A DNA stretch of 64,000 bases, taken from Escherichia phage AV101. The position numbers and the translations under genes were made by a program. The notes below the pieces were generated by a model, which saw only the letters and a program-made list of their open reading frames with translations, searched no databases and was not told the origin of the DNA. Positions 25,750-31,139 of the stretch are shown here, one piece after another. The DNA lies in the sequence record OQ973471.1; one strand, 5' to 3'. The stretch's first letter is position 1. Every line of letters starts with the position of its first letter.

Positions 25750-26238
25750 ATGATGTTGTTAATGAGCGTTCCACAGAACAAGATGACCCCTGCAACAGAG
25801 GGTAAGAATCACTTCAACATCTACAGCCGGAGCCAGACGGAACTCGGGCGCTTCCTCTCGCATTTTACCCATCATCCAATGACTACCCATGAACATGGTG
25901 TGTTTAACTCCATGGAGGGGTACTGGTATTGGCTGAAGTATAGGGATGACAACCTGCGCCTGCTCGACGGTTATGAGGCCAAGCAATATGGACAGGGATT
26001 GGCGGCTTCCCGCGTCATTGTCCTGGACCCGTCTACCGAAGAATTCAAGCGCGATATCCTATTTGCAACTAGTATGAAACTCCAGACAATGCCTGAACGT
26101 CTGAAGATCAGATTGGCGTACAGTCGCCTACCCCTGATCCATGCATATGTTCAGAACGGGAAATACAGTTTTCAAAACTCTATGGACTATATCATTGCCC
26201 ACATTAATCGTCTCCGCATACAAGGAACTTTGAAATGA
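25750..26238 (+). CDS. NADAR (YbiA-like, DUF1768) domain protein (putative)
   Basis: FNIYSRSQTELGRFLSHF resembles the NADAR F-Y-S...F-S-N-F core; a later W/Y-rich segment roughly matches the second conserved block. From memory of E. coli YbiA. Confidence 0.45.
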   Translation: MMLLMSVPQNKMTPATEGKNHFNIYSRSQTELGRFLSHFTHHPMTTHEHGVFNSMEGYWYWLKYRDDNLRLLDGYEAKQYGQGLAASRVIVLDPSTEEFKRDILFATSMKLQTMPERLKIRLAYSRLPLIHAYVQNGKYSFQNSMDYIIAHINRLRIQGTLK

Positions 26239-26816
26239 AATTTCTACACACTATCGTCGACACTTCTTATGACTGCACTGCTCATACCCCAGACCGTTCG
26301 CCTGTGTTTGTTCTGAACAAACTAGGTGAAGAGATCTGTGAACTGTCTGATGTGTTTCATGGCATAGTATCTTCCGAGCCGTTGAATGGCGAAGTTGCTG
26401 ATGTCATTATCTCTGCTATTGACCTTCTGTACGTCATGGATTATGACGACGTCCAAATGCGCGGCTCTCTGAACAAGGCCGAAATGATCGACTCTGTCAT
26501 CAACCACATGGCGACAGTGAACGATATTTCTTCTAATCTGTTGGAAGAAGACTGGTTCCGTCTGATTGATCGTGATCCTCAAAAGCATCTGAATCTTATT
26601 CATCATTATCATGGCCGGATTATCCGATTGTGCAACCAGCCTTATCGCAGTCAAGACAGATTGGATCAACTCGTCAATGACCTAATCAAGCATGTTGCGC
26701 GCATGGGGTGTGGGGAAGGGGCGATCCGTGGATCCTCTTTGACGGCCACTCGCATTAAAGTGGAGCACGCTATTGAACACAAGGTTGAAAAGTGGCGTAG
26801 CAAATTTGGTCTATAA
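26235..26816 (+). CDS. MazG-like nucleoside triphosphate pyrophosphohydrolase
   Basis: KLGEEICELSD...EVADVIISAIDLLY is the MazG E-x-x-E / E-x-x-D metal-binding motif pair. Confidence 0.55.
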   Translation: MKFLHTIVDTSYDCTAHTPDRSPVFVLNKLGEEICELSDVFHGIVSSEPLNGEVADVIISAIDLLYVMDYDDVQMRGSLNKAEMIDSVINHMATVNDISSNLLEEDWFRLIDRDPQKHLNLIHHYHGRIIRLCNQPYRSQDRLDQLVNDLIKHVARMGCGEGAIRGSSLTATRIKVEHAIEHKVEKWRSKFGL

Positions 26817-26865
26817 GCCGACCCCATACATAATCTTGTGTGTTTACCATTGACGGGATAGGCCG

Positions 26866-28776
26866 ATGTCCAACAAAATTGATATTGAACGCAAGTACAA
26901 GAAGCTCACTCACGTTGAGCATATCCTACTCCGCCCAGAGCGTCATCTGGGCAGTATTCGTTCGTCTGTGGGGACGGTGTGGGTGTATGACCCAACTAAG
27001 GACAAAGTTATCTTCCGTGACAACTTTGAGTACTCCCCCGCGCTGATCAAACAGTTTGATGAAATCATCACCAACTGTGTTGACCACAGCAAGACCCCTG
27101 AGGGCAAATCCCTGACGGAAATCACCGTCACAGTTTCCCCGATGAACGGTCAAATCATCGTTGCTGACAACGGGGGTATCCCTGTGGTCAAACATGGCGT
27201 CACCAACGAGTGGCTTCCTGAAATGTTGTTCGGCTCTCTATATGCGGGATCGAACTTCAACGACGAAGACGAAGAGTACAACAACCAGAAGTCCGGTGGT
27301 CAGAATGGCGAAGGGGCGTCCCTCGTCAACGTGTTCTCCAAATGGTTCCGCGTCACGACTAATGACGGCAAGAAGTCTTATACTCAGACGTTTGAAGACA
27401 ACATGAGCAAGAAATCTAACCCAGTCATCAGCAACGTGAACAGTCCTGGCACATCCATCGCCTGGATCCCCGACTATGCTCGCCTGGGCGTCAAAGGACT
27501 TGACCAGAACAACCTGCTGATGATCTATCGCCGCGCGTTTGAAGTGGCTGCGTGTAACCCGCGCCTGAAGATTGTTCTCAACGGGAAGCAAATCCGGATT
27601 GACCGCTTTGGTCACTTCGTTGATTACTTCCATGCTGGCTCGGCTGTTGACGAAACCGGGGATTGGTCTGTTGCTGTAGCCCCTTCATCCGGTATGTTCA
27701 TGCACGCATCATACGTGAACTCAATTGCCACCCACATCGGTGGTCCTCACGTTGATTATGTTGCCGACCAGATCGTGGCTGCGATTCGTCCTCAGCTGGT
27801 GAAGAAGTTCAAGACCGAGCTGAAACCTGCCATGATCAAGAACCACATGTCCTTGTTCATCGCTGCCGACATCAACAACCCGCGCTTTGACAGCCAGACC
27901 AAGGAGCGCATGACGACTCCTGTGAGCCAGTTTGGTACGTCCTACAAGCCCAGTGACAAGCTGATCCGCAAGGCGCTTGAGTTCGTTATGGCTGGCCTGA
28001 GCAAAGAACTGGCTTCCCTGCGCAATGAGCAGGATGATGCTGAGTTTGAAAAGGCCAAGAAGGATATCAGCAGGCGCGATTATCGTGAGATTGAGAAGTA
28101 TTACCCGGCGACAGCCCGTGGTGACCGCAGCAGTTGTTCCCTGTTGCTGACAGAGGGTGATAGCGCCTCCAACCCTATCCTGAACGCCCGTGACACCAAA
28201 AAGATCGGTTTGTTCCCGCTTCGTGGTAAGTTCATCAACTGTTTGAACGCCCCGCGCTCAAAGGTGATGGCAAACGAAGAGTTCAAGAATCTGTGTACCA
28301 TCCACGGTGGTGCAGTACCAGGCCAGCCCCTTGACATCAGCCGTTACCCACAGACTGTTGTGGCTACCGATGCGGACGACGACGGCATTCACATCCGTGG
28401 GTTGTTGATCACCCTGTATTGTACGTTCTGGCCAGAGTACGTCCGTCAGGGCAGGCTGAAGCTGCTGCGTACTCCTTATATGCGCGTGTGGTGTGGTAAG
28501 GTGATGCATGAGTTCATGAACAACACCGAGTATGAGGAGTTCCTGAAGACCCCCGATGCCAAGAAGATCACGAAGAAGAAATATCTGAAAGGTCTGGGTG
28601 GCAACAGCACTGAAGACTTCAAGCGTATTCTAAACAACCTGGATGCGTATACTACGACGGTCACGCTGGACGATGGCTATCAACAGTCACTGAAGAATGG
28701 CTTCGGTGATGAGGCCGCCGATTACCGCAAAACCTGGTTTAGCGATGTTTGTCTATTTGAAACCGAGGATGAATGA
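26866..28776 (+). CDS. DNA topoisomerase II large subunit (GyrB-like ATPase plus TOPRIM; T4 gp39 and gp60 regions in one ORF)
   Basis: GHKL ATPase N-terminus (EIITNCVDH...ADNGGIP), TOPRIM-like ATDADDDGIH; 636 aa. Confidence 0.85.
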   Translation: MSNKIDIERKYKKLTHVEHILLRPERHLGSIRSSVGTVWVYDPTKDKVIFRDNFEYSPALIKQFDEIITNCVDHSKTPEGKSLTEITVTVSPMNGQIIVADNGGIPVVKHGVTNEWLPEMLFGSLYAGSNFNDEDEEYNNQKSGGQNGEGASLVNVFSKWFRVTTNDGKKSYTQTFEDNMSKKSNPVISNVNSPGTSIAWIPDYARLGVKGLDQNNLLMIYRRAFEVAACNPRLKIVLNGKQIRIDRFGHFVDYFHAGSAVDETGDWSVAVAPSSGMFMHASYVNSIATHIGGPHVDYVADQIVAAIRPQLVKKFKTELKPAMIKNHMSLFIAADINNPRFDSQTKERMTTPVSQFGTSYKPSDKLIRKALEFVMAGLSKELASLRNEQDDAEFEKAKKDISRRDYREIEKYYPATARGDRSSCSLLLTEGDSASNPILNARDTKKIGLFPLRGKFINCLNAPRSKVMANEEFKNLCTIHGGAVPGQPLDISRYPQTVVATDADDDGIHIRGLLITLYCTFWPEYVRQGRLKLLRTPYMRVWCGKVMHEFMNNTEYEEFLKTPDAKKITKKKYLKGLGGNSTEDFKRILNNLDAYTTTVTLDDGYQQSLKNGFGDEAADYRKTWFSDVCLFETEDE

Positions 28777-29222
28777 TGGAATATCCACTAACTCATCAGA
28801 TGCAGCCAACAAAAGACACGTGTATGTCAACGTGCCTGGCGATGTTACTTGAGCGTCCGGTCGCCGAGGTTGCTGAAATATGGCATGAAAGTTTCGCGAA
28901 TTGGGAAACCACGATTGGTGACGTTCTTTGTATGGAAGGGGTTCCGTTCTTGCAAGGGAAAGGGATCAACCAAACCGCCACCATCTATCATGATTATGTT
29001 TATCTGCTTTGCGTGCCAAGTCCAGCAACGCCAGGGTTATTGCACCAGATCATCTTAGACACTCGTCATGAAAAACTTGTTGTGTACGACCCACTGAAGG
29101 GTACTGGCAAAAGATATTACACCCTGGATGAAGAAGACAAATCTCCTCTGGCGGTAAAACTTGAAACTTGGATTGTGGACTACATTGTCGATCCATATGA
29201 AGTGGGAGGTTATCGTGGGTAA
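28773..29222 (+). CDS. Papain-like (C39-like) cysteine peptidase domain protein (putative)
   Basis: Q-x5-C motif (HQMQPTKDTCMSTCLAMLL), downstream His (IYHDYVYLL) and Asp, in the order of a C39 catalytic set; inserted between the two topoisomerase genes. Confidence 0.4.
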   Translation: MMEYPLTHQMQPTKDTCMSTCLAMLLERPVAEVAEIWHESFANWETTIGDVLCMEGVPFLQGKGINQTATIYHDYVYLLCVPSPATPGLLHQIILDTRHEKLVVYDPLKGTGKRYYTLDEEDKSPLAVKLETWIVDYIVDPYEVGGYRG

Positions 29223-29223
29223 G

Positions 29224-30555
29224 ATGGTTGCCAAGAGCATTACTGTAACGGACTTCGTCAACACTGACCATAAACAGTTTTCTGTGGTCAACAGCATCCG
29301 TCAAATCCCTCAGCTGATTGACAGCCTCAAGCCAAGCCAGCGCAAGATCCTTTTCGCTGCTCTTGAGTACAACAAGGAGGAGATTGTTGACCGCCTTGGT
29401 ATGTTCGCCGCCGCTCGCACCAACTACAAGTCTGGTGGTGAGAACATGAGCGGCACTATCGTGAACATGGCTCAGGGGTTCCCAGGCACGAACAACATCC
29501 CGTACTTTGACCGCGATGGCCAGTTTGGTTCTATCATGGGGCGTGATGCTTCATCTGCCCGATACATATCCGTCGCTGTATCTGACGTTATCCGCAAGAT
29601 CTTCCGCAAGGAGGATGAGGGTATCTTGGAATACAACTACCTTGGTGAAGAAAGGCTGGAGCCGAAGTTCTTTCTGCCCATCCTACCCATGTTCCTGGTG
29701 AATGGGATCAATGGTATCGGCACCGGATATTCCACCGACACCCCGTGTCATTGCGTTAAGTCCGTGCTCAGTGCCCTGAGAGCGCTTCTCCGTGGCGAAG
29801 ACCCGAAAGACTTAAAACCGTACTGGAACGGCTTCAAAGGAGAGACAGGCTATACTGAGGAAGGAAGAGCATACAGTCGCGGTATCTTCCGTCGCGTCAA
29901 TGCCACCACCCTGCATATCACCGAAGTCCCAGTGGGTTGGTTCGCCAAAACCTATGAGACCAAGGTGTTGTTGCCTCTGTACAAGGCTGGTATCCTCACC
30001 GAGTACGCCAACGACACGACGGAAGATGGCTGGGATATCACGGTTGTGTTTAAGCGCGGCGAACTCTCTAAGCTGAGTGACGAGCAGGTTGAGCAGATGT
30101 TCAAGCTGTATTCAGCCACCAAGCCTGTTTGGACAGCATGGGATGAAGACGGTGTCATTCATCGTTATTCTGGTTGGCGGGACATGTTGCTGCCGTTCTT
30201 CAATTATCGCCTGTCACGGTACGAAGACCGTCGCCAGTATCTGTTGAAGGACATGGCAGACAGGATCCGCAAGCTGGGTGACCGGGCGGTGTTCATTGAA
30301 TGGGCGACGCGTGTTGATCTCCGCCAAAAGATTGACGTGCTGAAGTCTCTGTTCATGCAGGACTACCCGGACTTTGGTGGTGATCTTGACGAGTTGTTCA
30401 AGATGCCTCTGTCGTCTATTACTCTGGACGCCCGTGAGCGCCTACTCAAGCAGATTGAGAACCTTGAAGCACAACATAAGGAATTAAGTAAGAAAGAGGA
30501 CATCGATCTTTACACTGAAGACCTTGATGACCTTGAAAAGGCTCTTGACCTTTAA
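29224..30555 (+). CDS. DNA topoisomerase II medium subunit (GyrA-like; T4 gp52-like)
   Basis: LKPSQRKILFAAL matches the GyrA-type active-site region; GGGAGG RBS. Start could be the GTG at 29215 or the ATG at 29224. Confidence 0.8.
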   Translation: MVAKSITVTDFVNTDHKQFSVVNSIRQIPQLIDSLKPSQRKILFAALEYNKEEIVDRLGMFAAARTNYKSGGENMSGTIVNMAQGFPGTNNIPYFDRDGQFGSIMGRDASSARYISVAVSDVIRKIFRKEDEGILEYNYLGEERLEPKFFLPILPMFLVNGINGIGTGYSTDTPCHCVKSVLSALRALLRGEDPKDLKPYWNGFKGETGYTEEGRAYSRGIFRRVNATTLHITEVPVGWFAKTYETKVLLPLYKAGILTEYANDTTEDGWDITVVFKRGELSKLSDEQVEQMFKLYSATKPVWTAWDEDGVIHRYSGWRDMLLPFFNYRLSRYEDRRQYLLKDMADRIRKLGDRAVFIEWATRVDLRQKIDVLKSLFMQDYPDFGGDLDELFKMPLSSITLDARERLLKQIENLEAQHKELSKKEDIDLYTEDLDDLEKALDL

Positions 30556-30917: not shown

Positions 30918-31139
30918 ATGGATGATTCCTTGTATTTTCATTGTCCTGGGTGTGATATACTTCATCTATATCGCATTAAGGGCGAAACCCAAGGTCCGAT
31001 GTGGTCGTGGAACAACAATGTTATTGAGCCTACGTTCACACCGAGCCTGCTGGTGAATGCAACTGATCCAGCATCATTTTGCCATCCGTTCCTGACCGAC
31101 GGCAAAATACAATTCCTCGGCGACTGTTCCATGATCTGA
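30918..31139 (+). CDS. Small Cys-containing (possibly zinc-binding) protein
   Basis: CPGC...C...C pattern; 73 aa. Confidence 0.35.
   Translation: MDDSLYFHCPGCDILHLYRIKGETQGPMWSWNNNVIEPTFTPSLLVNATDPASFCHPFLTDGKIQFLGDCSMI

Follow-up and report, generated by a model that had tools for sequence, protein, structure and literature searches.

A putative C39-like cysteine peptidase encoded as accessory cargo between the topoisomerase II subunit genes of Escherichia phage AV101

In a stretch of 64,000 nucleotides from Escherichia phage AV101 (record OQ973471.1), analysed as a whole and referred to here as the window, a short open reading frame (ORF) lies between the genes for the two topoisomerase II subunits. 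Its product is probably a small, soluble, cytoplasmic and standalone cysteine peptidase of the papain clan, carried as early accessory cargo, with an activity predicted from conserved residues and a structural model. The protein belongs to phrog_4049, a family labelled 'unknown function' (E = 6.6e-52, residues 5-143 against profile positions 2-142 of 145). The features that carry this reading are the following:

28773..29222, + strand: putative C39-like (clan CA, papain-fold) cysteine peptidase gene, member of phrog_4049, running from ATG to TAA and encoding 149 amino acids.
28803..28823, + strand: Gln11 (predicted oxyanion-hole residue) to Cys17 (predicted nucleophile), QPTKDTC motif, assigned by conservation and by alignment with LahT150.
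29043..29045, + strand: His91, predicted general base, aligning with the 'nH[FY]vvL' His of LahT150.
29088..29093, + strand: Asp106-Pro107, predicted third catalytic residue within a C39-type 'DPxxG' motif, aligning with DPakG of LahT150 and PCAT1.

A first-pass annotation, made from the sequence alone, had described a Gln-x5-Cys, His, Asp arrangement in this ORF, and reading it codon by codon verified Gln11 (codon 28803-05) and Cys17 (codon 28821-23), which give the Q-x5-C spacing, as well as His91 and Asp106. Lack of the Cys or the His in homologues had been named beforehand as counting against a peptidase; across 176 aligned homologues spanning 24-93% identity, the non-gap counts are 171/171 for C17 and 175/175 for H91, alongside 170/171 for Q11 and 174/174 for both D106 and P107. 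Among 11 diverse phage homologues (24-62% identity), the invariant positions are Q11, P12, C17, A23, M24, S83, H91, D106, P107, G112 and Y116. Additionally, a hidden Markov model (HMM) of the family aligned with LahT150 places the Q, C, H and 'DPxxG' in register. The Q/C/H/D motif shared by these sequences exceeds chance. Two further residues are conserved without an obvious catalytic counterpart in C39 enzymes, namely Cys21 (28833-35; 161/174), one helical turn past the predicted nucleophile, and His38 (28884-86; 157/176), in helix 2, and these might make up a site for regulation, redox chemistry or metal binding.

The predicted structure points in the same direction. AlphaFold2, supplied with a 27-sequence alignment, returned a model with a predicted local distance difference test score (pLDDT) of 88.7 and a predicted template modelling score (pTM) of 0.86, in which Cys17 stands at the N-terminus of helix 17-26, His91 opens strand 90-96 and Asp106 lies just past strand 103-105, a modelled secondary structure that is the classical papain-like arrangement. 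The structure prediction and fold search called for by the first-pass annotation, in which a non-peptidase fold was to speak against its proposal, gave a papain-like fold with PCAT1 first: the top Foldseek matches in the PDB were all PCAT1 (probability 1.0). A separate structural comparison listed further papain-like proteins behind its best matches, namely PeiR (score 8.6), the C39-like 3erv (8.3), a phytochelatin-synthase-like protein (8.2), staphopain, CdiA-CT and YopQ (8.0 each) and Josephins (6.1-7.4), and the BFVD matches comprised uncharacterised family members and a Bacillus-phage 'Peptidase C39 domain-containing protein'. The structural alignments with C39 domains run at 13-18% identity only. 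These comparisons support a fold that, as modelled, is papain-like and closest to C39, and together with the invariant residues and the LahT150 register they uphold the original proposal of a papain-like, C39-like peptidase.

It could be asked whether the protein is a cell-wall hydrolase, i.e., an endopeptidase of the NlpC/P60, CHAP or PeiR type serving entry or lysis. This is highly improbable, as matches to CHAP and NlpC/P60 are far weaker than those to C39 (CHAP/endolysin matches reached a Foldseek probability of 0.08, and E = 0.04 in the BFVD search), the protein sequence shows neither a signal peptide nor a transmembrane segment or a domain for cell-wall binding, and the gene is found in early/replication modules rather than with lysis or tail genes.

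Several observations weigh against the peptidase assignment. The only Pfam match of the window protein is to Peptidase_C39_2, restricted to residues 3-28 and well below the cut-off (E = 0.12, 13.4 bits against 24), and searches of PDB sequences with the single protein and with two family profiles gave nothing significant. A scan for double-glycine leaders, made with a crude regular expression over window ORFs of at least 30 amino acids, returned just one implausible 40-amino-acid ORF with a GTG start on the minus strand. Deamidases, acyltransferases and transglutaminases share the same fold and triad. Lastly, Pfam scans of the flanking genes at ten loci of other phage families found no neighbour common to them, and gave just one YAcAr/SLOG protein and one WDGH protein.

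The sequence searches can be specified further. The Pfam scan gave no PF03412 (Peptidase_C39) match for the window protein, NCBIfam gave nothing meaningful and PADLOC nothing. The best of the PDB matches, to a lipase (E = 0.65) and an NTF2 protein (E = 0.5), were rejected as spurious; a larger family profile reached a papain-like toxin (9l5u, E = 0.14) and LahT150 (E = 0.5), neither of them significant, and hhalign of the family against the single LahT150 fragment covered only 24 N-terminal columns at 54.6% probability. At the level of the family, 42 of 142 members match Pfam Peptidase_C39 at E<=1 (best 5.6e-5), and the other Pfam families encountered among these members are C58 (9), C39_2 (8) and DUF3335 (2).

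This weak sequence similarity to curated C39 models speaks for a catalytically dead C39-like domain (CLD) acting in binding, as in HlyB, or for a non-functional ORF. Such an interpretation is nonetheless extremely unlikely. The family is widespread, and in about 175 homologues neither the nucleophile Cys nor the rest of the catalytic set varies; in the HlyB-type CLD, by contrast with the phage protein, this nucleophile is not kept, whereas Cys17 is retained in every homologue aligned at that position. Furthermore, the ORF is under purifying selection, with a ratio of nonsynonymous to synonymous substitution rates (dN/dS) of 0.13 in the comparison with the Ag3 allele and of 0.17 in that with Se-J (for the Maynard allele, synonymous sites have reached saturation). 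Low dN/dS and invariant active-site residues, considered jointly, rule out both a decaying ORF and a dead C39-like domain.

The shared fold and triad noted above raise a second alternative, in which a papain-fold enzyme modifies a host protein through non-proteolytic chemistry: as a glutamine deamidase, for which Cif, OspI and 'papain fold toxin 1' are models, as an acyltransferase or transpeptidase, exemplified by NAT and phytochelatin synthase, or as a transglutaminase. We regard this as rather unlikely, because no enzymes other than C39 peptidases are among the best structural matches, because Pfam Peptidase_C39 is matched by 42 family members as against 1-2, and because Q-x5-C and DPxxG, found in register, form the C39 signature.

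A C39-like peptidase, which we retain as the preferred reading, can be set against several known systems. As in the C39 domains of peptidase-containing ABC transporters (PCAT1, ComA, LahT150; MEROPS C39, PF03412), the phage protein combines a predicted papain-like fold with Q/C/H/D residues and DPxxG; unlike PCAT, ComA and LahT150, it is standalone and cytoplasmic, with no ABC-transporter fusion and no leader substrate found in the window. Because it falls below the Pfam threshold and lacks the ABC-transporter architecture, it is filed as a C39-like family of its own and not as a member of C39. Proteins of the Peptidase_C39_2/DUF3335 type (3erv from Bacillus anthracis) are also standalone, but they are bacterial whereas the window protein is phage-encoded, and the phage match to them is sub-threshold and N-terminal only; such proteins are usually secreted or of uncertain role. 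Papain-clan effectors and toxins (YopT/AvrPphB of C58, CdiA-CT, DUF4150-linked toxins, YopQ) are structurally less similar than C39 and, unlike them, the phage protein lacks a partner for secretion or immunity. Likewise, Josephin-type deubiquitinases and ubiquitin 'clippases' (PaJOS, BpJOS, PcJOS) give weaker structural scores than C39. The fold assignment is not new, since a 2022 paper already lists it for phrog_4049; the literature searched contained no functional study of this family.

The genomic setting of the ORF is defined by its two neighbours and by two Shine-Dalgarno-like sequences:

26866..28776, + strand: topoisomerase II large subunit gene (T4 gp39+60-like, GyrB-like), 636 amino acids, upstream flank; Pfam HATPase_c, DNA_gyraseB, Toprim and TOPRIM_C.
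28765..28769, + strand: GAGGA, Shine-Dalgarno-like, within the 3' end of the large-subunit gene, read from the sequence.
29204..29209, + strand: GGGAGG, Shine-Dalgarno-like, within the 3' end of the ORF and 14 nucleotides 5' of the gp52-like start codon, read from the sequence.
29224..30555, + strand: topoisomerase II medium subunit gene (T4 gp52-like, GyrA-like), 443 amino acids, downstream flank; Pfam DNA_topoisoIV, E = 1.4e-65.

These Pfam assignments, in agreement with the records of Ag3, fGh-Ecl02 and Maynard, where homologues of the large subunit are labelled topoisomerase II large subunit, substantiate the earlier placement of a 149-amino-acid ORF between two topoisomerase II genes. Tight coupling to both neighbours had also been proposed and is found at either end: the ATG of the ORF (28773-75) overlaps the TGA of the large-subunit gene (28774-76) as ATGA, and a single base separates its TAA (29220-22) from the medium-subunit ATG at 29224. 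GAGGA lies 3 nucleotides from the ATG at 28773 and 6 from a second in-frame ATG at 28776, which is better spaced and is the start used by homologues including Ag3 and P0001; if it is used here, the product may have 148 amino acids. In a consensus scan of the + strand, the three genes were not separated by any terminator-like site, and the sole promoter-like site was a weak 9-of-12 match at 26850-26879, 16 nucleotides before the topoisomerase start. The ATGA overlap, the 1-nucleotide gap and the lack of a terminator-like site fit a single transcript with translational coupling. The ORF is present in single copy in the window, and its GC content is 46%, with 51-52% in the flanks.

Three observations on the genes around the ORF may be added. 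In vB_EcoA_4HA11 (MN445184.1; locus L013, 2081..2527), the deposited coding sequence starts at an internal codon, locus position 2150, and this annotation drops the first 23 codons, including the Gln-x5-Cys, although, as in the window, the complete reading frame begins directly behind the stop codon of the topoisomerase gene. In the C-terminal part of the gp52-like medium subunit (residues 373-429), Pfam gives a sub-threshold match to the CdiI_2 immunity protein (E = 0.0021, 19.2 bits against 26.7) that is probably spurious. Elsewhere in the window, four transfer RNA genes (Met-CAT, Asn-GTT, Tyr-GTA, Ser-GCT) were located by ARAGORN at 230..1203 (+) and confirmed by Rfam.

Comparison with related phages shows that the junction itself is polymorphic. 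The region as a whole is 83-97% identical at the DNA level to Ackermannviridae phages (Agtrevirus/Kuttervirus: Ag3, Gloob, 4HA11, fGh-Ecl02 and others). When an 804-nucleotide 'empty junction' probe was searched against phages, 284 records matched, and 60 of them, sampled evenly, were distributed as follows:

Junction empty (span of about 803-805 nucleotides): 47/60 sampled records.
Insert of about 440 nucleotides: 7/60 sampled records.
Insert of about 580 nucleotides: 3/60 sampled records.
Other inserts: 2/60 sampled records.
Partial match: 1/60 sampled records.

The comparison of junctions across relatives suggested by the first-pass annotation thus shows both presence and absence of the ORF. 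Among the seven inserts of about 440 nucleotides, four were confirmed as the C39-like ORF, those of KEP4, maane and CRW-SP2 by their coordinates and that of Se-N on the same full-length match as Se-J; the other three are presumed to be the same ORF from their identical span length. In SKML-39, LIMEstone1 and RC-2014, the insert of about 580 nucleotides is annotated as an HNH endonuclease gene (L002, 3488..4060; L018, 713..1285), which bears out the earlier remark that this junction carries homing endonucleases, here in the exact slot; in the SKML-39 HNH protein, the sole Pfam match is a sub-threshold one to an AP2 DNA-binding domain. In Serratia phage Kevin, the slot contains an unrelated 132-amino-acid ORF without a Pfam match (L016, 763..1161), and in Erwinia phage phiEa2809 an unannotated putative membrane ORF of about 88 amino acids (L017, about 701..967). 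Across Ackermannviridae, there are at least five alternative junction contents, counting the empty state and two divergent C39-like alleles. In fGh-Ecl02, the topoisomerase genes are one base apart, with exactly 446 nucleotides fewer than in the window, and the medium-subunit start of the window, TAAGATGGTTGCC, equals that of empty-junction relatives except at one position (GCC in the window, GCT in fGh-Ecl02).

The ORF and its flanks differ in their closest relatives, as seen from their identities to the window:

4HA11: ORF 99.1%, upstream flank 90.1%, downstream flank 95.0%.
fGh-Ecl02, the phage with the closest flanks: ORF absent, upstream flank 96.5%, downstream flank 98.4%.
Maynard-type Kuttervirus: ORF 60.6%, upstream flank 88.5%, downstream flank 80.4%.

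This discordance between the history of the ORF and that of its flanks, together with the varied contents of the slot, indicates that the gene is cargo exchanged by recombination and not a component of the topoisomerase. By these comparisons, the C39-like gene is accessory, mosaic in Ackermannviridae and horizontally exchanged. The topoisomerase operon is itself a fine-scale recombination patchwork (window 26900..30500 against loci L001, L013, L015 and L014, in a per-100-nucleotide profile): the window departs from 4HA11 by 11-30% but hardly at all from fGh-Ecl02 over 26900-27500 and 30200-30400, and over 27500-28700 it is equidistant from the two, while the ORF itself matches 4HA11. A topoisomerase-specific role, such as the processing of topoisomerase subunits or of trapped cleavage complexes, was considered and rejected, since the family is mostly sited elsewhere and most Ackermannviridae do without the gene; no topoisomerase II gene was found in the fetched flanks of the non-Ackermannviridae loci examined.

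Such a pattern could also be produced by a selfish mobile gene, whether a new kind of homing element or its passenger, of no benefit to the phage. The window gene and the junction homing endonucleases (the HNH genes of SKML-39 and LIMEstone1) share an identical intergenic slot, presence/absence polymorphism and mosaic flanks, and T4 mobA, a free-standing homing endonuclease gene, lies at gene 60/39. The ORF is, moreover, more alike between phages than its flanks are (99.1% vs 90-95%), and junction alignment shows that the first few gp52 codons differ with the insert type, each having its own version. Against this, the window product has a predicted peptidase fold and no nuclease domain: Pfam, NCBIfam and PHROGs return no nuclease family, and the fold matches are all papain-like. 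There is no adjacent endonuclease gene in the window, the family occupies many unrelated loci in other phages, and the catalytic residues of the peptidase are under strong purifying selection. A selfish element is hence very unlikely, and the gene is better regarded as peptidase-encoding cargo.

The wider distribution of the family also bears on its nature. By tblastn, it is present in 178 phage records from several unrelated phage groups, where it lies among early/replication genes, and an exhaustive HMMER search of 1.84 billion representatives gave 343 clusters at 50% identity (E<=1e-3), almost all of 130-195 amino acids. Its members are nearly all standalone, like the 149-amino-acid window protein. 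On the bacterial side, which was covered by plasmid records and complete E. coli genomes, only two large 'plasmid' records match the family, and a DNA-level search of complete E. coli genomes gave no match to the gene; the family is thus, as far as sequence searches reach, phage-only. The phages that carry it are Ackermannviridae, Queuovirinae, Vequintavirinae, Pseudomonas phages and Vibrio phages. In Seuratvirus, Samunavirus, Mydovirus and Vibrio phages, small early genes arranged in arrays surround the homologue; Pseudomonas phage MiCath has it between the genes for RNase H and DNA ligase, Vibrio phage K292 near a helicase, and an Erwinia jumbo phage near a clamp-loader gene and SbcC.

Some metagenomic relatives are fused to MazG-like, YunG-like or zinc-ribbon segments. 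These domain fusions are too sporadic for function assignment, and some may be gene-calling merges. For instance, the metagenomic proteins P0120 and P0174 have an N-terminal segment of the PHROG 'MazG-like pyrophosphatase' type fused to the C39-like domain, either a real fusion or such a merge. In the window, the gene at 26235..26816, just 5' of the topoisomerase gene, has homologues annotated as MazG-like; Pfam found no domain in it.

From these elements, a mode of action can be outlined. The gene would be co-transcribed with the topoisomerase II operon and translationally coupled within it, and this co-transcription and coupling, as judged from gene position only, would lead to the protein being made in the early, replication phase. 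In the folded protein, Cys17 at a helix N-terminus would serve as the nucleophile, His91 and Asp106 on neighbouring strands would complete the triad, and Gln11 would form the oxyanion hole, such that a peptide or isopeptide bond could be cut by way of a thioester intermediate. If the C39 enzymes are a guide, the cut would probably fall after small residues such as Gly-Gly. Most likely, the target of this cleavage would be a host protein (a phage protein is the less probable option), in the service of host takeover or counter-defence, a role suggested by its status as an accessory early gene and by analogy with small papain-fold effectors and toxins; its substrate could be host-encoded.

A narrower proposal is that the family comprises phage counter-defence Gly-Gly peptidases or isopeptidases that would strip or forestall the ubiquitin-like conjugates of Bil, Bub or type II CBASS Cap2 systems, or cut another immune protein. 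The evidence for it is circumstantial: the nearest folds belong to enzymes that cut after Gly-Gly, with Josephin-type deubiquitinases among the structural neighbours; virulent phages carry the gene as an early accessory that is shuffled horizontally; and a BubE-like DUF6527 gene occurs in the same early region, about 1.7 kilobases downstream of the C39-like gene:

30918..31139, + strand: DUF6527/PF20137 ORF, 73 amino acids, full-length domain; E = 2.3e-11, 43.9 bits against a cut-off of 23.6.

DUF6527 corresponds to BubE, a Ser-His protease that removes ubiquitin-like conjugates and is encoded in bacterial Bub (6E) operons (bioRxiv 10.1101/2024.11.21.623953). The phage gene, which is labelled 'hypothetical', 'anaerobic dehydrogenase' or 'ammonia monooxygenase' in records, is found in about 287 phage records, mostly from Ackermannviridae and in a few cases from 9NA and from Pseudomonas, Burkholderia and Erwinia jumbo phages. 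By its similarity to BubE, its product may be a factor acting against ubiquitin-like conjugation, and a Gly-Gly-directed cysteine peptidase encoded close by might in principle work to the same end. The distributions of the two genes nevertheless speak against a specific link, as the C39-like gene is present in only about one eighth of DUF6527-bearing records and, outside Ackermannviridae, the two families are found in different phage groups. Their specific co-occurrence was accordingly rejected: DUF6527 is a core gene, and the C39-like gene is accessory. A dedicated counter-defence Gly-Gly peptidase is thus an unlikely specification of the broader peptidase reading; if it were true, phages would possess a viral 'deubiquitinase' analogue.

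The early regions of phages are rich in small accessory genes, many of which prove to be host-takeover or anti-defence factors. The C39-like gene described here has an enzymatic fold that can be assigned with confidence from its model and an active site that is predicted to be intact, and it is found at the junction of the topoisomerase II subunit genes, which is a hot spot in Ackermannviridae. Natural near-isogenic phages with and without the gene make its effect directly testable. Should it turn out to encode just one more protease, the gain would be one of annotation, from 'hypothetical protein' to 'C39-like cysteine peptidase'; the identity of its substrate, on the other hand, could lead to a new target in the host or a new pathway of immunity.

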